54,392 bases of DNA, from the NCBI GenBank assembly GCA_022819805.1, contig JAJEGO010000018.1, forward strand, positions 1-54,392. Reading direction: 5' to 3'. Both the position numbers and the translations under genes were made by a program. This stretch comes from Candidatus Dadabacteria bacterium (GTDB taxonomy: Bacteria; Desulfobacterota_D; UBA1144; Nemesobacterales; Nemesobacteraceae). Below are positions 37,678-48,224 of the stretch, in pieces. The notes under the pieces are model-generated. The model was not told where the DNA came from and did no database searches. It was given only the letters and a program-made list of their open reading frames with translations. Position 1 is the first letter of the stretch. Each line of letters begins with the position of its first letter.

Positions 37678-40600
37678 TTAATAGTAGCTTTGCAGGGCCT
37701 TCACGTCGAGGCCGCTTCTCACCATGGCCTCGATAGCACCGACTCCGGCCACCGCGCCGGCGAGAGTGGTGAAGTAAGGAACATTGTTTACAAGGGCTGT
37801 CCTCCGTATTGAATAAGACTGCGCGATCTCCTTTTTCCCGAAAGTGGTATTTATAACCAACTGCACCTCACCGTTTTTAAGATGATCGACTATGTGGGGG
37901 CGGCCCTGCTTAACCTTTTTCACCGTTCGGGAAAATATACCATTTTTATTGAGAAATTCAGATGTTCCCCCGGTAGCCATTATATCAAAACCGGTATCGC
38001 TCAGCCTTTGGGCTATATCAAGCATCTTGTCGGACTTGTCCTCGTCTTTTACGCTTATGAAGGCCATTCCGCCGGAGGGAAGGCTGTTGCCAGCCGCAAT
38101 CTGGGATTTGGCAAACGCCTGGTCAAGGTCGGGAGCGATTCCCATGACCTCGCCGGTGGATTTCATTTCCGGGCCCAGAATCGTGTCAACTTCCGGAAAC
38201 TTGACGAAAGGAAAGACCGATTCCTTCACGCAGTAGTGCTCCGGAACGATTTCCTCCGTGTAGCCGAGTTCCTCAAGAGATTTTCCGGTCATCACCTTGG
38301 TGCCTATCTTGGCCAGCTGAACCCCTATGGCCTTGCTCACGAAAGGAACGGTGCGGCTCGCTCTCGGGTTTACCTCGATTATGTAAATTTCCCCGTCCTT
38401 TACGGCAAACTGGATGTTAACAAGTCCTCTTACATCCAGAGAAAGGGCGAGTTTCTTCGTCTGGGATTTTATTTCCTCGACAATTTCAGGTTCCATCGAA
38501 AACGGTGGCAGAATCGCCGCGCTGTCTCCGGAATGAACCCCGGCTTCCTCGATGTGCTCGAGCACCCCGCCCACAACAACGGTCCTCCCGTCGCAAACCG
38601 CGTCCACGTCGACCTCCTTCGCGTCCTTCAGGAACTTGTCTATCAGTATCGGGTGGTTGGGCGAAACGCTCGCGGCTTCCCGGATGTAGGTCCGAAGAGC
38701 CTCCTCGTCGTAAACCGTCTCCATGGCGCGACCGCCCAGAACGTAGGACGGGCGGACCATGACCGGATATCCTATTTCGCGGGCTATGCCGATGGCTTCC
38801 CCCTCGCTTCTCGCGGTATCGCTTTCGGGCTGGAGGAGCCCCAGATCCGAAACGAGTTTCCTGAACCTGTCTCTGTCCTCGGCAAGATCTATGCTCTCGG
38901 GGGAAGTTCCTATTATCTTCACCCCCTCCTCCTCAAGCGCGAGGGCCAGGCGGAGCGGGGTCTGGCCCCCGAGGTGAACTATGACTCCCCATGGATCTTC
39001 CCTTCTTATAAGAGCCAGGGTGTCTTCAAGCGTAAGCGGTTCGAAATAAAGCCTGTCCGAGGTGTCGTAGTCCGTGCTCACGGTCTCGGGATTGCAGTTA
39101 ACCATAACGGCCTCGTATCCCTCTTCCCGAAGCGCAAAAGACGCGTGCACGCAGCAGTAGTCAAACTCTATGCCCTGGCCTATGCGGTTAGGTCCCCCGC
39201 CCAGTATCACAACTTTTTTCCTGTCCGTGGGAAGCGCTTCGCTTTCGCTCTCGAAAGTCGAGTAGAGATAGGGGGTGTAGGCCTCGAACTCGGCGGCGCA
39301 GGTATCAACCATCTTAAAAGCAGGTTCAATCCCCTCGCGCAGGCGGAAATCTCTTATTTCCCCTTCCTCCGCGGAAAGAAGTTTTGCAATCTCAATGTCG
39401 GAAAAACCGTGGCGCTTGGCCTCGAGTATGGTCTCTCGGTTAAGCCCGTCCTTCGCAATATCCGATTCGAAGTCGACAATCTGCTTTATATTCTGAAGAA
39501 ACCACGGATCCACGTGAGAGATTGAGTAAATTTCCTCCAAATTCATGCCCAGACGAAACGCGTCAGCTATGTACCAGAGCCGTCGCGGAGAGGGAATCCT
39601 GAGTTTCTCCCTTACCTCTTCGGGGTCATCGGATATTTTCTCGAAACCGTAGGAATCTATCTCAAGAGATCTCATCGCCTTCTGCAGGGACTCCTTGAAA
39701 GTTCTTCCCATGGACATGGCTTCCCCCACGGATTTCATCTGCGTGGTGAGAGTCGGGCTCGTCTGCGGAAACTTCTCAAACGCGAACCTCGGTATTTTCA
39801 CCACAACGTAATCTATCGTCGGTTCAAAAGACGCGGGAGTGTACTTCGTTATATCGTTTGAAATCTCATCCAGCGAATAGCCGACCGCAAGCTTCGCGGC
39901 TATCTTGGCGATCGGAAACCCCGTAGCCTTTGAGGCAAGCGCGGAGCTTCGCGAAACCCTCGGATTCATCTCTATTACCATCATCCGTCCGTCTTTGGGG
40001 TTGACGGCGAACTGGATGTTAGAGCCTCCGGTTTCAACGCCGATTTCCCTTATTATTGCTATGGACGCGTCGCGCATATGCTGGTATTCCTTGTCGGTAA
40101 GGGTCTGTGCGGGAGCCACCGTTATGCTGTCTCCCGTGTGAACTCCCATGGCGTCGAAATTCTCTATGGAGCAGATTATGACGACGTTATCCATGTGGTC
40201 CCGCATTACCTCGTACTCAAATTCCTTCCACCCCACTATGGATTCCTCTATGAGTATCTCGCTTGCCGGAGAGCTCTCGATGCCCGCCTTGGCGAACTCC
40301 TGGAATTCCTCCCTGTTGTAGGCGACGCTTCCGCCGGTTCCGCCAAGGGTAAAAGAAGGCCGTATGATGACCGGAAACCCTATCTCGTCCACGACGTCCC
40401 AGGCTTCTTCCATGTTATGCGCGATACCGCTTTTCGGCACCTCAAGACCTATGTCCGCTATCGCTTTTTTGAAAAGATCCCTGTTCTCGGCTTTTTTTAT
40501 CGCAGGTATTTTTGCCCCTATGAGTTCCACGCCGTGGCGCTCGAGCACGCCCGACTCGGCAAGCGAAACGGCAAGGTTAAGAGCCGTTTGTCCGCCTATC

Positions 40601-40866
40601 GTGGGCAGAAGGGCATCGGGCTTTTCCTTCTCTATTATTTTTTCCAGTATTTCGGGAACGAGCGGCTCTATGTAAGTCCTGTCGGCAAAGTCGGGGTCGG
40701 TCATTATGGTAGCCGGGTTGCTGTTTACGAGAACCACCCTGTAGCCTTCCTCCTTCAGCACCTTGCACGCCTGGGTGCCTGAATAGTCAAACTCGCAGGC
40801 CTGTCCTATGACTATCGGACCGGAGCCGATGACCATTATGGTTTTTATGTCAGTTCGCTTGGGCAT
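37678..40866 (-). CDS. carB: Carbamoyl-phosphate synthase large subunit
   Basis: [35 protein letters not shown], duplicated ATP-grasp, MGS domain. Confidence 0.99.
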
Positions 40867-41002
40867 GAAACGGAAAAGCTTGTAACAGGTTGCAAATATA
40901 TACTTAATAACGCGCTGACAGGCAATAAGAGAAATGTCCGTTTTCCGTGCGAGGGTCTATCCTTGCTAATACGTAGCGTATGTAGCAGCATCCCATTTTC
41001 CG

Positions 41003-41632
41003 ATGTCGCAACATATGTATAATGTATTTATGGGCGATGGCTTATCTCAACATGAAGTCGAACTGTTGAATGGTCAGGAACCATTTCACGGGCCGGGAGT
41101 CAAAGAACTGCTGCTGGTCGACTACTGGCGATGGTCAGGTTCTGTGCTTCTGGATAACACCACCCGCGGGATTCTGTCAGAATTTCTTATCGCTACAGCA
41201 CTAGGTCTCCACAAAAAACCAAGGAAAGAGTGGGATGAGTCTGATATCCGCATGGAATCCGGCACCTCAATTGAGGTTAAGAGCTCCGCATATGTGCAAT
41301 CGTGGGAGCAATCCAAAACTTCTGTTATCGAGTTCGGGATTGCTCCCCATAGAAGCTGGAACGCCGAAACTGGAGAGTACAGAGAAGGTGTTAAGCGTTG
41401 GACGGATATCTATGTATTCTGCGTTTTCACGGGGAAAGAACCTCTTCACCCGCTTGATACAAGCAAGTGGGATTTCTATGTTCTTCCAACGGAGGCGCTT
41501 GACCGGGAAGTTCCCGAGCAGAAAAGCATTCGACTGAATTCCCTCAAAAAACTCAAACCTTACGAGTGTCAATACGTTGACCTGAAAAAAACAATTGAGA
41601 ACATAGAGAACAGCATTAGAGAAAAAGCATGA
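41003..41632 (+). CDS. Hypothetical protein with PD-(D/E)XK-like nuclease motif
   Basis: RGILSEFLIA...WDESDI...SIEVKSSAY...DIYVFC; start uncertain. Confidence 0.65.
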   Translation: MSQHMYNVFMGDGLSQHEVELLNGQEPFHGPGVKELLLVDYWRWSGSVLLDNTTRGILSEFLIATALGLHKKPRKEWDESDIRMESGTSIEVKSSAYVQSWEQSKTSVIEFGIAPHRSWNAETGEYREGVKRWTDIYVFCVFTGKEPLHPLDTSKWDFYVLPTEALDREVPEQKSIRLNSLKKLKPYECQYVDLKKTIENIENSIREKA

Positions 41633-41811
41633 TAGCCCATCTCAAACTCTCGAACTGATCTGGAATCTATTTTCATGGGAATAGATGTCTATTTGGAACC
41701 TTGAGTAGATTATTAAGGGGACTTCCTACCTTTTATCAAGCGATAAATTTATATAACGATTTTATTTTTCAAAAACTTTTTCCGAGTTTTTCCATACTGT
41801 TTTTCCCATAA

Positions 41812-43071
41812 TCAGGCAGCAACTGCCTCCGGCACTTTTTTAAACTTCTTGTCAAACAACTCTCCCTTTTCCAGCAAAGAACAACACACAAGTAAAAGAC
41901 GGTCGCCCACAGTGCGAAGAGACCTTGCATGACTCAGTCCCCTGGCCCGTAACGACTTGTACCTGGACTTGCTTACCGGGTCATGTATAACGGCGACTCT
42001 TGCCAGATGATAAACCGCTTCCATTAGTCTTGGGGAAGCTGCGCGGCGTCGCGTAACATACTTGCTCTTACCCGACTGCTTCGTTACCGGGGCAGTCCCG
42101 GCAAAGCATCGCAGGGAGTTGTAGTCGCGGCGGCACAGCAGCTCATGAGCCTCTCCAAGCAACGCGCCCAGCACAATCATACCCACACCGGGAATTGACC
42201 GCAGGATTTCTATATCGCCTGGTTTTGCTTCCTTCCCCCTTCGGGCATTTTCTCGGGAAGCAATAATTTTGATAGTATCTTCGATTAAATTTTCCGTTTC
42301 GCTCAGTTGACGGTCAGCAACCTTGATTCGCTCAACAATGGTTTCTATATGCGCAACTCGACTGCGGACGGTTTCTTCCCGAAGGGTTATTTCCTGTGAA
42401 CGAAGAACCTTGAGCACTCCCTCGGTGTCAATACGCCGGATGCCGTGATGCTTGAGAAGCTTGCGCACCCTTGAGCGCCTGATTTTCCTTGCGGCAGCAG
42501 GGGTTGGTGCCAGCTCCCACAACTCAATGAGCCAAGGTCGCACAGCGTCACCGATAATCTCATTGAACTGGGGATAGTAACTCCACAGCAACTGACGCAT
42601 CCGATTCACCATACGGATTCGTTCCGCCACGAGTTCCTCTCTTGTACGCAGCAGTTCCCGCAGAACCGTGATGTCCGGATCCCGCGGCCTGACTCTGCGC
42701 AGGTGTCGACTGTCGGTGCGAAGCGCCTCTGCAAGCACCTGGGCGTCGCGACGGTCATCCTTGGCTCCGGATGGAGAGAATCGGTCTCTGAACCGGTCAA
42801 GCTGCTTGGGATTGACCGAGTGAACACAGAACCCTCTTTCCAAAAGACTTTCTACAACCGGACCATGGTTAACCTCGATTGAGACAGCGACATTATCCGT
42901 GGCTGAACCACAGGTTTTTAATATCCACTCGGCCATCTCGCAAAGACCTTTGCCTGTGTGGTCGAAAACCTTTTCTCCCAAAATAAAACCGTCTTGGTCG
43001 ATAACGCAGACTTGGTGGGAGGAAGAACCCCAGTCAATACCAGCAAAAAATAGTGTTTTATCATGTTCCAT
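41812..43071 (-). CDS. IS110-family transposase/recombinase
   Basis: RuvC-like DEDD (GIDWG, IEV, KDDRRDA), SIPGVG, FAGTAPVTKQSG; GGAGG RBS at 43081-43085 on the minus strand. Confidence 0.97.
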   Translation of the reverse strand: MEHDKTLFFAGIDWGSSSHQVCVIDQDGFILGEKVFDHTGKGLCEMAEWILKTCGSATDNVAVSIEVNHGPVVESLLERGFCVHSVNPKQLDRFRDRFSPSGAKDDRRDAQVLAEALRTDSRHLRRVRPRDPDITVLRELLRTREELVAERIRMVNRMRQLLWSYYPQFNEIIGDAVRPWLIELWELAPTPAAARKIRRSRVRKLLKHHGIRRIDTEGVLKVLRSQEITLREETVRSRVAHIETIVERIKVADRQLSETENLIEDTIKIIASRENARRGKEAKPGDIEILRSIPGVGMIVLGALLGEAHELLCRRDYNSLRCFAGTAPVTKQSGKSKYVTRRRAASPRLMEAVYHLARVAVIHDPVSKSRYKSLRARGLSHARSLRTVGDRLLLVCCSLLEKGELFDKKFKKVPEAVAA

Positions 43072-43094
43072 GATAAATTACCTCCGTGTGTAGT

Positions 43095-43260
43095 AGTCGG
43101 GTCTGCCGTGATGGTTACCTGATCCAGTACGGGTGCTCAGTGGCACGAACTTCCTACTGGGTATTCATCACGGCACTCGACCGAGGCACATGTCCCCCTT
43201 AGGCGCTCAAAAACGCTGAATTACATAAGGTAACTCCCGATCGAGTAGCCCGTGATAATC
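43095..43260 (-). ncRNA. Candidate IS110 bridge RNA (structured non-coding end upstream of the transposase)
   Basis: Stems tgccgtgatg(43104-13)/catcacggca(43166-75), ccagta/tactgg, gtgc/gcac, actcga(43175-80)/tcgagt(43241-46); the second stem-loop holds gaattacata, matching the insertion site; boundaries approximate. Confidence 0.65.
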
Positions 43261-43297
43261 TAATTCTGTGCTAAATAAAAGTTTTTAGGAAGGTACT

Positions 43298-43320
43298 GAA
43301 TTACATACATAAATAAAAAA
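43298..43320 (+). repeat. GGGAATTACATACATAAATAAAAA repeat, copy 1 (split by IS110; 5' GG at 41677-41678)
   Basis: gaattacatacataaataaaaaa is identical to 44578-44600. Confidence 0.9.
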
Positions 43321-43325
43321 TAAGG

Positions 43326-44549
43326 ATGGCTGCAAAGAAAGAGGTTGCTTCAAAAAGGAAGGTTGCGAAAAAGAAGACCGCGCGGCGTACGCACAAGGTC
43401 TGTAATAGGTGCGGTTTCGACTGCGCACTCAATGCCCGAACATGCAGTGAGTGTGGCAGCGAGAAGTTCGCGCCGGACTGGGTGATTGCCAAACGACCTG
43501 TCAACCGACAGGTCAGTGTCGAAGTGACCAAGTCAAATCCGAAGTTCGGAGAAGCTCAGGAACGTCTTACCCTGAGCAAGTGGTGGCCGGGCGGCAGTGC
43601 GACTTTTCACCTGCCCAATCTCGGGCAGTGGGAGGAAATCGAATGCATCATCAATAACGACCTTGCGCCGCTGATCGGCTGGAAGCCTGCCGATGAACTG
43701 GTCAAGTCAATCAAAAAGAAGTCAAAGAACGGTAAATCCGGTGCGGCGGGGGAAGACTATATAGAGCTGATGGACACGCACCCGGATTTTCTCAAGAAAC
43801 TGGTACAGGCGATTGATCCGAATAGGATATCAAAAAAGGAATTTGAAGATGTAGTCGAGATTTTCGGCAATATCTCGGATGCCCTAACGAATGCGAATGC
43901 CGGGTTCCGGGAAGCCTTTCTTGCTGTCGTTGAAAAACTCCCGAAACAGAAACAGCGTGCGCTTGAAGACCTCGACCTGCTTTTGCAAAGCTGGTCGTTA
44001 CAGGTCGTGACAAATGTCGCCCAACAAGTCAAGGCACGCATGGAGACGATTAAATTGTTCGAAAAGCAAATCCAGGACAAGAAGACGTTCGAGATTATCA
44101 GCGATAACTCCATCCACCGTATTCTTGAGCGCGCCATGTGGCTTGTTGACGAGCGCTACTGGCTTTTGCAGTCCAACAATACACTGCGCAAATTTATCGG
44201 CGAAGAAATGAGCAAGAAAGACAAGAAGAAGTACGGCAAAAAAAGACCGGATTTTGTCTGCGGCACCGTCGATAACAAACTCATTATCCTGGAGCTCAAA
44301 CGTCCTTCTCACAGTTTGACTGTTGAGGATTTAAATCAGCTTGAGGCCTACACGGTCATTGCCGAGGACTACAAGAAGTTCACCTCATACGAAGGCTATC
44401 TTGTTGGTAGTAAGGAAGATAGCGAGTTGCACCGCTATCTACGGCGGCGCTCAGGATTCAAGGTACTTCACTATGCAGACATCATCGAAAAGACGATGGG
44501 GCGCTACAAAGAGTTTCTCGATGCGATTGAATCCGATGGAGGTGCTTGA
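43326..44549 (+). CDS. Zn-ribbon + helical + C-terminal PD-(D/E)XK nuclease-like protein
   Basis: CNRC..CSEC; IHRILERAMWLVDERYW; RPDF..IILELKRP...QL..Y. Confidence 0.75.
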   Translation: MAAKKEVASKRKVAKKKTARRTHKVCNRCGFDCALNARTCSECGSEKFAPDWVIAKRPVNRQVSVEVTKSNPKFGEAQERLTLSKWWPGGSATFHLPNLGQWEEIECIINNDLAPLIGWKPADELVKSIKKKSKNGKSGAAGEDYIELMDTHPDFLKKLVQAIDPNRISKKEFEDVVEIFGNISDALTNANAGFREAFLAVVEKLPKQKQRALEDLDLLLQSWSLQVVTNVAQQVKARMETIKLFEKQIQDKKTFEIISDNSIHRILERAMWLVDERYWLLQSNNTLRKFIGEEMSKKDKKKYGKKRPDFVCGTVDNKLIILELKRPSHSLTVEDLNQLEAYTVIAEDYKKFTSYEGYLVGSKEDSELHRYLRRRSGFKVLHYADIIEKTMGRYKEFLDAIESDGGA

Positions 44550-44575
44550 TGAGTATTCTGTTAGGCGACCCTCTT

Positions 44576-45089
44576 GGGAATTACATACATAAATAAAAAA
44601 CCGTAAAATCTAAAAATATTTTTTTGTATGATCTAATCTGCATAAACAATAAGGAGGTTTTTTATTATGGCTGAAGAAAAAATTGCAACTAAAGTTTTTT
44701 CCATTCATACGCCGGATGGAGAAAGATTTGACTTTAAAGTACAGCAAATATCTGAAAATCAATTAAGAGTATTTGAAATTTTAGACGAGGACCACCCCAT
44801 AATTGTCACTTTTAGAGAGACTGATCCCGTTTGCACAATGAATTTTCAGAACGAAACGGGAATTGTAAAAGAAATAAAATCATCTGAACTAACAAATACC
44901 AATGCCAAATTCCAGATAATATTTGGAGAGATAAAATTACTATTAAAGGAAAGATTAGATAAAGCAAAAGCCTATAATTCATTAATTGAAGATGTAAAAG
45001 ATTTTGTTGATTTTCTTCCCAAAATAAGAGAGATTTGAACTCACGAACAATTAACCTCCCTCCTATTTTTATTTATGTATGTTATTCCC
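44576..45089. mobile_element. Non-autonomous cassette bounded by 24-bp terminal inverted repeats (44576-44599 / 45066-45089)
   Basis: gggaattacatacataaataaaaa vs reverse complement gggaataacatacataaataaaaa (1 mismatch); one cargo ORF, no transposase. Confidence 0.7.
44667..45038 (+). CDS. Hypothetical AT-rich cargo protein
   Basis: AAGGAGG RBS, 123-aa ORF inside the IR pair. Confidence 0.75.
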   Translation: MAEEKIATKVFSIHTPDGERFDFKVQQISENQLRVFEILDEDHPIIVTFRETDPVCTMNFQNETGIVKEIKSSELTNTNAKFQIIFGEIKLLLKERLDKAKAYNSLIEDVKDFVDFLPKIREI

Positions 45090-45367
45090 AAATTATGTCA
45101 GCCCTTGTTTGCCACTCTTAGCATAAAGAAGAAGTGAACAAACCATTTTTTCTCTATATAGGTTGTTTTATCTCTGCTGCTTATCAAATACCTAAAACAA
45201 AGCAGACTGAATTGGGAAGGTCTATTGTGACACTAACTGGTTCTTTAAAGCATCTTCTTAGCAATGAGGTCAGCAAGGCCATCAAGGTAATAATTGAAGG
45301 GAGTTATAATTAACACTTAAGATATTTTCTATCGTTTCTTTCTTGTTCTTTATTCTGCTCTAAAACC

Positions 45368-45395
45368 TTGACATACACCTTTTGATGATTAGTTT
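45368..45395 (+). promoter_or_regulatory. Possible sigma70-type promoter for rpoH-dnaK
   Basis: TTGACA at 45368, then TAGTTT 16 bp later; GGAGG RBS downstream. Confidence 0.35.
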
Positions 45396-45417
45396 GAGAA
45401 GTGGAGGTACATGTTAG

Positions 45418-46278
45418 ATGCAGACGGCAGTTGCAACGTGCGATTCTCTTTCGGTTTTCATGCGGGAGATGGAAAAACATCCGCTTCTCTCAAAAGAGGA
45501 AGAGCACGCGCTTGCGGTCAGATATTACGAAAACGAAGATCTTGAAGCGGCCAACAAACTTGTGGTGTCAAACCTCAGGTTCGTGGTGAGAATCGCTTCT
45601 GAGTACAGATCTTACGGTTTCCCGATGATGGACCTTGTTCAGGAAGGTTCGATAGGACTGATGCGCGCCGTTCAGAAATTCAATCCCTACAAGGGCTACA
45701 GGCTAATATCCTACGCGGTGTGGTGGATCAGGGTAAGGATCCAGAACCACATAATGAAGTTCTGGAGCAACGTAAAGATCGGAACGACGCAGTCCCAGAG
45801 AAAGCTTTTCCAGAGAATAGAAGGGGCAAAGCGCAAGCTCGGGATAACAGCCGCCAGCATGGAAGATGACGACATAAGTCGCCTGGCCGACCATTTCGGC
45901 GTCAAGGAAGAGGAAATCGGAGAGATGCAGGTTCGCGCTTCCAAAAGAGATCTCTCCCTCTCGGAGCGTCCCGCAGGGGACGACTCCTCGGCCACTTACG
46001 GGGAGTTGCTCCCTGACCCGTCGGATAACCAGGAGCAGGTGCTCGGCGAACTCGGGTTCGACAGCCTTGCCAGGGAGAATCTGCGCGAAGCTCTCGAGAT
46101 GCTTTCAGAGAGGCAGAAAAAGGTGATAAACGAGAGGTATTTCACCGAACCTCCAAGAAAACTCCACGAAATAGCCCGTGACCTCGGGGTTTCCCAGGAG
46201 AGGGTAAGGCAGATACAGGCCGAGTCCATAGGGAAACTCAGGGCGCACATGGCCGAAAAACTAGAAATTCACCCGTAA
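45418..46278 (+). CDS. rpoH: RNA polymerase sigma factor, sigma-32/RpoH-like
   Basis: LVVSNLRFVV, DLVQEG.IGLM.AV.KF.P, YAVWWI, RpoH box VKIGTTQSQRKLF, VSQERVRQI. Confidence 0.9.
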   Translation: MQTAVATCDSLSVFMREMEKHPLLSKEEEHALAVRYYENEDLEAANKLVVSNLRFVVRIASEYRSYGFPMMDLVQEGSIGLMRAVQKFNPYKGYRLISYAVWWIRVRIQNHIMKFWSNVKIGTTQSQRKLFQRIEGAKRKLGITAASMEDDDISRLADHFGVKEEEIGEMQVRASKRDLSLSERPAGDDSSATYGELLPDPSDNQEQVLGELGFDSLARENLREALEMLSERQKKVINERYFTEPPRKLHEIARDLGVSQERVRQIQAESIGKLRAHMAEKLEIHP

Positions 46279-46304
46279 CAAGAAGAAAATCCAGGAGGAA
46301 TTAA

Positions 46305-48224
46305 ATGGCTTCTAAGATAATAGGAATAGACCTTGGAACAACCAATTCATGCGTCGCCATCGTCGAGGGCGGCGAACCGAAAGTGATAATCAACGAGGAA
46401 GGCACGAGAACCACCCCGTCGGTGGTCGCGTTCCTAAAGGACGGAGACGAGGTTCTGGTCGGCGGACCGGCAAAGCGCCAGGCCGTGGCCAACCCTGAGA
46501 ACACCGTCTACTCTACCAAAAGGCTTATGGGCCGCAGGTTCGAGGAGATATCGAGCGAAGCTGACAGCCTAGCCTACAAGGTAGTGAAATCAGGCAAATC
46601 AGACGCCTGGGTCGAGGTCGAGGGAAAAGAGTACTCTCCCCCGCAGGTTTCAGCGCATGTGCTAACGAAGCTTAAAAAGGCTGCCGAGGACTACCTGGGT
46701 TCCGAAGTCCAAGAAGCCGTTATCACCGTTCCAGCGTATTTTAACGACAGCCAGCGCCAGGCAACAAAAGACGCCGGAAAGATAGCTGGTCTTGACGTAA
46801 AGCGCATAATAAACGAGCCGACCGCGGCGGCGCTTGCCTACGGGTTTGACAAGAAAAAAGAGGGCATGATAGTCGTCTACGATCTCGGGGGTGGAACTTT
46901 CGACGTATCGGTGCTTGAGGTCGGAAACAACGTAATAGAGGTAAAGTCCACAAACGGTGACACCCATCTCGGAGGAGACGATTTTGACAAGAGGGTCATT
47001 GATTACATTGTCTCCGAGTTCAAAAAGGATTCAGGAATAGACCTCGGGGCGGACAAGATGGCCGTGCAGAGACTTAGGGAAGCGGCAGAGAAGGCCAAGA
47101 TCGAGCTTTCAAACACCGTCGAGACGGAAATAAACCTGCCGTTTATAACGGCCGATGCAAGCGGTCCCAAGCACCTGGTGCTTAAGATAACACGCTCCAA
47201 GTTCGAGCAGCTGATCGAGGATCTCGTAAAAGGCACCCTCAAGCCCTGCGAGCAGGCCCTCAGGGATGCGGGGCTTCGCCCGGGCGAGATAGCCGAGGTG
47301 ATACTGGTCGGCGGATCGACCAGGATTCCGCTTGTGCAGAAAGTCGTGACTGACTTTTTCGCAAAGGAGCCGAGCAGGGGGATAAACCCAGACGAGGTGG
47401 TTGCCATGGGGGCCGCCATACAGGCGGGCGTGCTCGGCGGAGACGTAACCGACGTGCTCCTTCTAGACGTGATACCTCTCTCGCTTGGCATAGAAACCCT
47501 TGGAGGGGTAATGACCACCATAATCGAGAGAAACACGACCATTCCCACAAAGAAAAGCCAGGTTTTCACAACGGCAGAAGACAACCAGAACTCGGTTGAG
47601 ATCCACGTGCTGCAGGGAGAGCGGCAGATGGCGGCCGACAACAGGACGCTTGCCAGGTTCATCCTGTCGGGAATTCCCGCGGCGGCAAGGGGGATTCCCC
47701 AGATAGAGGTCACTTTTGACACCGACGCTGACGGAATACTTCATGTATCCGCGAAGGACAACGCAACCCAGAAGGAGCAGAAGGTCAAGGTCGAGGCTTC
47801 AAGCGGGCTAAGCAGCGACGAGATTGACTCCATGGTCGATGAAGCCGAGAAGATGTCCGAGAAAGACAAGGAGAAAAGCGAGCAGGTTCAGAAAAGAAAC
47901 CAGCTTGACGAACTTGTCTACAGGACGGACAAGAGTTTCCAGGAACTTGGCGACGGCCTATCCGAGGATGAGAAGAAAGAACTTGAACAGGCCCTTGAGG
48001 AAGGAAGGGAGGCGCTTAAGTCGGATGATCCGGGCAAGATCGACCAAGCGACGGAGAAAATAACCGCCGTTTCTCATAAGCTTGCGGAGCTTATGTACAA
48101 GAAGCAGCAGGAAGAAGCCGCCGCGGGAGCCGGAGAGGGCGGAGCTGAGGGCCAGGCCCCAGAACAGGGAAATTCCACCTCGGGCGATGACGTGATAGAC
48201 GCCGAATTTACCGAACAAAAGTAA
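46305..48224 (+). CDS. dnaK: Chaperone DnaK
   Basis: [42 protein letters not shown]-terminus. Confidence 0.99.

Follow-up and report, generated by a model that had tools for sequence, protein, structure and literature searches.

A predicted bridge RNA of an IS110-group insertion sequence is matched to IS1595-family transposon ends in a sponge-associated Candidatus Dadabacteria genome

Introduction

On contig JAJEGO010000018.1 of a Candidatus Dadabacteria bacterium (GenBank assembly GCA_022819805.1), an insertion sequence (IS) of the IS110 family sits within the tip of a 25-nt repeat, an uninterrupted copy of which lies 1.3 kb away. The locus raises the question of whether the element was brought to this place by its own guide RNA and, if so, what that RNA is set to find. 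The whole 54,392-nt stretch that was analyzed (positions 1 to 54,392 of the forward strand) is referred to here as the window; it belongs to a sponge-associated metagenome-assembled genome of 1.57 Mb in 71 contigs (51.6% G+C), and most of the sequencing runs that contain its sequence are labelled sponge metagenomes. An earlier reading of the window, made without database searches and called here the sequence-only reading, proposed that the bridge RNA of the element is programmed against the terminal repeat of another mobile element. Our analysis agrees with this in outline: the element is very probably a mobile IS110-group IS that works like IS621, with bridge RNA guides set to the repeat ends of IS1595-family transposons, although its boundaries and core differ from those first proposed. 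The mechanism and the family are as defined for the IS110 group by the bridge-RNA and seekRNA papers of 2024, and nothing about the mechanism is changed here.

An IS110-group element within a repeat tip

The recombinase gene of the element is an open reading frame (ORF) for 419 amino acids at 41812-43071 on the minus strand, and its product is the IS110 recombinase that the sequence-only reading had recognized. The N-terminal part matches the DEDD RuvC-like domain PF01548 (DEDD_Tnp_IS110; E = 1.5e-36, residues 10-167) and the C-terminal part the Transposase_20 domain PF02371 (E = 2.6e-14, residues 288-372), while the score against the NCBIfam model NF033542, 'IS110 family RNA-guided transposase', is 182.7 bits with a curated cutoff of 140. 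Similarity to the IS621 transposase (8wt6) in phmmer is distant (E = 8.4e-7); residues D13, E66, D106, D109 and S333 are aligned to identical residues, S333 to the serine of the IS621 ESG motif, and we take these five to be the catalytic positions. The non-coding ends are of unequal length, with 226 nt upstream of the recombinase gene and 90 nt downstream of it. As set out in an excerpt of PMC11187229, the longer non-coding end is upstream in the IS110 group and downstream in the IS1111 group, and the element therefore has the layout of the IS110 group.

The interior of the element spans 41722-43297 on the minus strand (1576 bp, or 1578 bp with one copy of the core), as judged from the points at which copies and homologues diverge and from the edges of unitigs. 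A second copy of the element in this genome is divided between two contig ends, those of C60 and C68, and in a base-by-base reading its C60 part, on the recombinase 3' side, parts from the window at the G-run 41717-41720. Three homologues with recombinases 80-81% identical (L082, L083 and L084, the last being the same as L001) and one at 75% (L092) lose similarity at the same two ends, at ...GGAAGTCCC on one side and at CAGTACC... on the other. In three sequencing runs (X1-X3, where X1 is not independent, being possibly the run from which the window came) the Logan unitig common to all copies of the IS extends from 41717 to 43298-43303.

The dinucleotide GA on the plus strand, TC in the recombinase orientation, stands at the right-end junction (41720-41721) and again at the left-end junction (43298-43299), and it is present once in the empty site of a genome of the same genus (G008); insertion has occurred without duplication beyond this short core. 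Removing 41722-43299 leaves four G followed by the intact repeat, which is the arrangement of the empty G008 site. A TCC is common to the donor junction and the target in the closest homologues, so that the sequence cannot separate a TC from a CC core, and most of the wider IS family reads CC at the core position. We prefer TC as the probable core, since TC together with a left end AGTACC explains both junctions and the G008 empty site without gain or loss, with a shift of register by one base being possible. As a separate observation, an inverted 7-nt CTTCCTA is found at both IS ends (43286-43297 and 41722-41729) with an offset of four bases, and it may be the counterpart of the short subterminal repeats of the IS110 group described in a section of PMC11208160.

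The 25-nt repeat has three matches in the window at up to three mismatches, and none in 100 shuffles. Repeat A is the occupied target: its inner 21 nt lie at 43300-43320 on the plus strand, its first bases lie across the IS at 41718-41721, and it is identical to repeat B. The right 23 nt of the repeat (43298-43320) abut the IS, and over 43296-43320 the 25-mer recurs except that IS sequence stands in for its first two bases. Repeat B (44576-44600, plus strand) is an intact and unoccupied 25-mer, close to the interval 44575-44600 in which an intact repeat had been reported. Repeat C (45065-45089, minus strand), also unoccupied, is inverted with respect to A and B, with 26-nt arms 96% complementary between B and C.

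The predicted bridge RNA and its guides

The 226 nt from the tip of the left end to the start codon fold more stably than shuffled sequences (z = -2.74). An alignment of 22 of the 25 unique 5' ends (alignment A1, recombinases 52-81% identical; L100, L086 and L008_2681 were left out for the foreign DNA inserted in them) gave in RNAalifold a consensus of 39 pairs, 14 of which have compensatory changes on both sides. The structured core of the predicted bridge RNA gene, with the target-binding loop preceding the donor-binding loop, lies at 43097-43254 on the minus strand and consists of two stem-loops, each having a large internal loop and a small closing hairpin. Among the 22 homologues, sequence variation falls almost wholly within four segments of the two internal loops. 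The two large stem-loops that the sequence-only reading had drawn in the ~230-bp non-coding end are thus borne out, both against shuffles and by covariation.

In IS621, left guides have the same sense as the top strand, right guides are complementary to it, and the core takes part in every pairing, according to an excerpt of Durrant et al. (2024; PMC11208160). The 9-nt left target guide of the present element (43218-43226, minus strand) has the same sequence as the left flank with the core: all nine bases are identical to the flank 43298-43306 on the minus strand, the tip of the repeat with the core at its end. The 8-nt right target guide, AAGGGGGA (43193-43200, minus strand), includes a core-binding GA and is complementary to the core and the C-run of the right flank, with a match of 6/8 at the window copy and of 7/8 at the C60 copy, the latter counted by eye. 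The sequence-only reading had placed GAATTACATA at 43218-43227 and tccccc at 43193-43198, and both positions are correct; its proposal that the two fit the insertion site as target guides stands for the left guide, and needs amending for the right, which is AAGGGGGA, not GGGGA alone, and partly reads DNA outside the repeat.

The donor guides were compared with the element ends by eye only. The left donor guide (43148-43157, minus strand) matches the IS right end GGTAGGAAGT, the reverse complement of 41721-41730, with the 5' side of the donor loop repeating GTAGGAAGT of that end, and the right donor guide (43123-43130, minus strand) is complementary to the IS left end CAGTAC. Homologues L082 and L084 have an A in the left donor guide and the same A in their right end, and the subfamily of L085, L061 and L009 combines a right donor guide GTATCGG with a left end CCGATAC.

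Covariation between loop and target among homologues had been named beforehand as a check on the guide assignment, and its outcome is favorable. The loop regular expression found both loops in 31 of the 53 copies with at least 52% protein identity, and these collapse to 25 unique sites; the 22 copies missed were mostly distant non-Dadabacteria copies, plus nested or truncated ones. An earlier expression had been dropped, having matched only 12/95 copies. Over the variable part of the left guide, cognate flanks agreed at a mean of 4.64/7 positions and non-cognate flanks at 2.56/7 (n = 22 and 500), and for the right guide the values were 3.96/6 versus 1.68/6 (n = 23 and 533). The observed sum was reached by 0/5000 permuted guide-flank pairings for each target guide, a figure that overstates independence because the sequences in the test are related. 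Guides with ATATAATTC adjoin TATAATTC flanks, CCCCCC guides adjoin C-runs, and the right guides CCTAACT, CCACATC and CCCCCTCA each stand beside exactly matching flanks.

No sigma-70-like promoter was found ahead of the bridge RNA in the integrated copy, where the scan gave 2 sites against 1.8 expected, both elsewhere. In the recombinase orientation, a -10-like hexamer closes the repeat tip, stopping two bases short of the IS left end (at 43298-43312 on the minus strand, and likewise at the C68 copy); it is TATAAT in the TATAT variant of the repeat and TGTAAT in the window. That the target repeat supplies part of the bridge RNA promoter is a speculation; the consensus scan gave no full promoter there.

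The target repeat as the end of an IS1595-family transposon

The identity of the repeat emerges from places where it brackets other DNA. At locus L112 of genome G023 the identical repeat, inverted, flanks a 3.08-kb element with an 8-bp duplication (TAAATTTT), and this element encodes a 309-aa transposase with DDE_Tnp_IS1595 (E = 4.8e-46) and Zn_ribbon_IS1595 domains, together with a second ORF. A further locus of the same genome (L113) has the same repeat pair around 1.6 kb with the duplication CAAAATTA and no transposase, and in G013 a repeat pair encloses 1 kb, with no clean duplication. The window's own genome (G000) contains paired tips around an IS1595 transposase gene on contig C55 (duplication AAATGTTT) and around a 720-bp piece on C68 (ATTACTTT), as well as paired IS1595-type ends around a lone TnpB gene on C17 with a perfect 8-bp duplication (AAAACCCC). 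Inward-facing tips also bracket a thiD-like gene (264 aa, named by eye) at C15:44749-45819 without a clean duplication, and this genome has at least five other IS1595-type transposase genes or fragments. Duplications of 8 bp are thus found at L112, L113, C55, C17 and C68, and none at the window repeats A, B and C, the C15 pair or L114; an IS1595 transposase with a zinc ribbon lies between the repeats at L112 and C55 and is absent from the window units. Both features, 8-bp duplications and a zinc-ribbon transposase, are usual for the IS1595 family according to part of PMC8101967.

The repeat is also widespread. Allowing one mismatch, its 24-mer occurs at 31 sites in 15 of the 36 genomes of the genus (reversed control: 0 sites). 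In the window's own genome there are 15 occurrences of the looser 14-nt tip GGGAAyTAyATAyA, against 2-6 in five block shuffles, and such tips are arranged there as inward-facing pairs; a degenerate pattern scan of G023, G021 and G009 gave 1 match against 1-2 in the control. The 11-nt target motif defined by an IS621-type rule (7 + core + 2) has a single exact match genome-wide outside the occupied sites, which is repeat B, 1.3 kb away. It has 31 one-mismatch sites genome-wide, several of them other IS1595-type ends, and repeat C differs from it by one mismatch.

Judged by the elements that it bounds, the target is the working end of an IS1595-family transposon, and the IS110-group element splits the repeat 3-4 bp from its tip. 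An insertion in such a working end should disable that end. For the repeats in the window itself, the most fitting view is that they are remnants, or ends that were rearranged, around passenger genes. The proposal that the IS parasitizes the ends of cargo cassettes accordingly needs only partial revision: the site is the tip of another element's terminal repeat, and 'cassettes' is only loosely right for units without a transposase or a duplication.

The TnpB gene on C17 deserves separate mention. It lies at C17:985-2301 and encodes 410 aa with matches to OrfB_IS605 (E = 2e-22) and a Cas12f1-like TNB domain (E = 1.5e-19), and it looks as if a DDE transposon took TnpB as a passenger. The left end of this unit has a similar sequence on C40 at 14273.

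Other copies, activity and alternative explanations

Examining the flanks of other copies had been suggested together with the sequence-only reading, and like flanks are indeed found. The C68 flank of the second copy is 18/20 identical to the window repeat beside the IS, well past the nine guided bases, and three further IS left-end flanks in X1-X3 match the window repeat for 10, 19 and 23 nt before diverging. The 80%-identical homologues L082, L083 and L084 adjoin GGGAATTA(C/T)-type sequence. A homologue in G021 is inserted in the right end of a 1.25-kb unit, the left end of which matches at 18/22. For L001/L084 the partner repeat (18/22) has no duplication, and neither L082 nor L083 showed a partner within 1.27 kb.

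The locus also has an empty counterpart. In G008 the unit made up of repeat A, ORF407 and repeat B is 96% identical over 1304 bp, and repeat A is uninterrupted at this locus (L102), reading ...ATAATTAGGGGAATTACATACATAAATAAAAAATAAGGATG...; the DNA to the left of repeat A differs, with a KwaB-like gene in G008 and ORF209 in the window. A contig in X1-X3 joins the G008-type left flank to the IS right end (with a loose end before 41712). The empty G008 site and this junction together imply that the G008-type locus is empty in one genome and occupied in other samples. We further infer that the bridge RNA is probably made and guides insertion, and that the copies in this genome are probably still active.

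Several points weigh against a guided and active element aimed at transposon ends. The right donor guide predicts one more C than the left end has in both genome copies, and the right target guide predicts one more C than is present in the right flank of the window copy; by these mismatches the IS copies here may be sub-optimal and of reduced activity. The repeat at the second copy is a lone motif upstream of housekeeping genes (alr), with no partner in C68 or C60, and one flank in a fourth run (X4) diverges right at the IS end. In the contigs of X1-X4, neither a circle junction nor an empty allele of the locus in the window was reported. In the covariation test, to which the relatedness of the sequences noted above also applies, the anchor search probably mislocated the left end at 3 of the 25 sites (L089, L015 and L091), which were kept and count against the result. 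Finally, repeats A, B and C are without target-site duplication and have no transposase between them, and A and B are direct, not inverted.

The alternative that survives best, though we consider it unlikely, is that the IS copies here are immobile relics whose site preference is historical and whose RNA no longer guides. In its favor are the one-base disagreements of the right donor guide with the left end, and of the right target guide with the flank of the window copy, and the vacancy of the perfect 11-nt site in repeat B, 1.3 kb away. The recombinase ORF is nevertheless open, and the IS copies are 99-100% identical over their contig-end overlaps. The IS unitig, moreover, stands at 3.4-5.5 times the word depth of the flanking pieces in three runs (word depth of contigs, not copies per cell) and is joined to several different flanks, and the occupancy of the G008-type site is polymorphic.

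It is distinctly improbable that the target is a generic intergenic motif, rich in AT and resembling a promoter or a REP, which IS1595 elements also happen to carry, and that the IS is an ordinary repeat-seeking IS110 element like IS621. In favor of this, the repeat often lies 30-250 nt upstream of a gene and reads into it (ORF407, ORF123, thiD on C15 and alr on C68); the second-copy site and the thiD pair lack a duplication or a partner, and in the recombinase orientation the motif contains TATAAT-like letters. Five elements with inverted copies and perfect 8-bp duplications (C55, C17 and C68 in G000, L112 and L113 in G023), two of them encoding IS1595 transposases, speak for a transposon end instead. 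The 24-mer is also almost letter-perfect at its 31 sites, which are non-homologous places in 15 species-level genomes, and this argues for a mobile end, not a promoter.

Very little credence is due to the idea that the recombinase protein itself picks the site by reading DNA, with the loop-flank matches as a by-product. Recombinases 52-81% identical share the RNA scaffold while both loop segments change with the flanks over at least ten guide versions, and RNA guidance is experimentally established for IS621 and ISEc21 (excerpts of PMC11208160 and PMC11187229, respectively).

The anatomy given in the sequence-only reading, a 1619-bp element at 41683-43301 with a 4-bp GAAT duplication, is hardly conceivable: excising it yields tGGGAAT plus the repeat, one more base of repeat B matched than with the revised boundary, but the 99.3% identity of the C60 copy to the window sets in only at the 32nd base of that element, L082, L084 and L092 lose similarity at the G-run 41717-41720 and not at 41683, the unitig shared by X1-X3 starts at 41717, the left donor guide matches an end at 41721-41730, and the empty G008 site has the four G that a boundary at 41722 predicts. 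With the second copy, four homologues and the unitigs agreeing on 41717, the former left boundary (the IS right end) is ~38 bp off, and GAAT at both junctions gives way to the 2-bp GA core. Deleting 41683-43301 does restore the repeat arithmetically, even though its limits are not the true IS ends. A GGGAAT at 41677-41682, 38 bp outside the true end and followed by no further similarity to the repeat, is best read as mimicking the repeat tip by coincidence, and its presence outside the IS made that deletion look exact.

Proposed mechanism and relation to known systems

In the mechanism that we propose for the element, the 5' non-coding end would encode a bridge RNA with two internal loops. Its donor-binding loop would read the element's own right-end/left-end junction, its target guides would be set to the outermost 11-13 nt of the 25-nt IS1595-family repeat and a few bases outside it, and the DEDD/serine recombinase would exchange strands at the 2-bp core (TC). 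With the guides set to the repeat tip, the IS would land 3-4 bp inside it, parting the tip from the rest of the repeat.

The element is like IS621 of E. coli in having a recombinase with DEDD and serine domains, an RNA in the 5' non-coding end, two internal loops, the same guide polarity, the core in each pairing, a 9-nt left target guide and a 2-bp core at both junctions. It differs in the size of its protein (419 aa versus a 328-aa chain in 8wt6, the similarity being only distant), in its core, TC (or CC) as opposed to CT, and in a longer right target guide of ~6-8 nt. Its target is a transposon end, whereas that of IS621 is a REP element.

IS1383, a member of the IS110 family, is said to have the inverted repeats of IS1384 as its integration site in Pseudomonas putida H, as Muller, Lauf and Hermann reportedly described in 2001. 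Like IS1383, the present element is an IS110-family member specific for the inverted repeat of another IS, with a different host, target family and sequences. IS4321/IS5075, which insert into Tn21-family terminal repeats as summarized in an excerpted source, are comparable as RNA-guided DEDD elements at a fixed position in the terminal repeat of another transposon. They differ in belonging to the IS1111 group, with the RNA downstream of the gene, subterminal inverted repeats and a reversed guide order, and the repeat that they enter, 38 bp long and of the Tn3 family, is carried by plasmids of clinical bacteria. ISPpu9/ISPpu10 and ISPa11 target REP sequences (part of PMC11187229) and, like the present element, they exploit a short repeat with many copies, where landing is safe and the site renewable; REPs are repeats of the host, whereas here the repeat is the working end of a DDE transposon.

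An IS110 element paired with IS1595 ends was not found in the literature searched; the supplements to PMC11208160 (Supplementary Table 1, Data 2) and the target logos of PMC11187229 could include this IS clade or targets of the IS1595 type. The guide-target pair itself, put forward as new by the sequence-only reading, can keep that description, while the principle is in print for IS1383/IS1384 and IS4321/IS5075: since targeting of other elements' repeats by IS110/IS1111 members is already known, the pair is new and the kind is not. Recombinase, RNA and the two donor ends can all be read from one data set, as can occupied sites, a perfect site that is unoccupied and the empty orthologous site of a sister genome. 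As a natural bridge-RNA system of an uncultured sponge symbiont, the element is also a candidate orthologue for bench work, with its TC core and long right target guide, and through it one can ask concretely how an RNA-guided IS benefits from landing in the end of another transposon.

We regard it as a tentative and rather doubtful generalization that in this Dadabacteria lineage IS110 elements aim reprogrammable bridge RNAs mainly at other mobile elements. The subfamily of the window would follow IS1595 terminal repeats, and a G in its left guide, able to form G-C with TACAT repeats or a G-T wobble with TATAT repeats, could allow a single RNA to serve both repeat subfamilies. If such element-on-element targeting is systematic, bridge RNAs would be weapons or hitch-hiking devices in transposon conflicts, and insertion 3-4 bp inside the repeat tip would be a selected way to disarm or ride an IS1595 end. 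A sister IS110 subfamily is inserted twice in the donor-binding loop within bridge-RNA genes of other IS110 elements (L002 and L008). The invaders lie head-to-head inside the host RNA gene, at ~1456-2860 in L002 and ~2700-3000 in L008, and the hosts are L009-type and L019-type IS110 elements. In two genomes the 30-nt target, as reconstructed, agrees at 30/30 positions with the donor-binding-loop region of the host RNA and is matched by the guides of the invader; the window's own RNA shares 19 nt of this target.

Gene neighborhood of the element

The element lies in a variable stretch bounded by carB (37678-40866, minus strand) on one side and a sigma-70 gene and dnaK (from 45418) on the other, in which a 209-aa ORF, the IS110-group element, a 407-aa ORF and a 123-aa ORF follow one another. 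ORF407 (43326-44549, plus strand), the putative cargo, is situated between repeats A and B and has only sub-threshold matches, to a BbrUII/HgiDII restriction enzyme model and to Cas4, that are weak and nuclease-like; the DNA between the same repeats in G008 is 96% identical. ORF123 (44667-45038, plus strand), taken from the ORF list, lies between repeats B and C and has no Pfam or NCBIfam match, and its position in G008 is occupied by other DNA.

The interval 40867-45417, upstream of the sigma-70 gene and dnaK, varies within the genus, as seen from the window and the G008 loci L102 and L119. In G008 the KwaB-like gene (PF16162, E = 4.9e-8; Kiwa-like) precedes the ORF407 unit, and the interval may be a small defense island. 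ARAGORN gave no tRNA over 40800-46400, and Rfam no family in the IS region (top match a snoRNA, E = 1.4) or around repeats B and C. Just outside repeat C, a 60-nt block (45090-45150) with no tRNA or Rfam match recurs, once each, in no fewer than eight other genomes of the genus at 84-90% identity.

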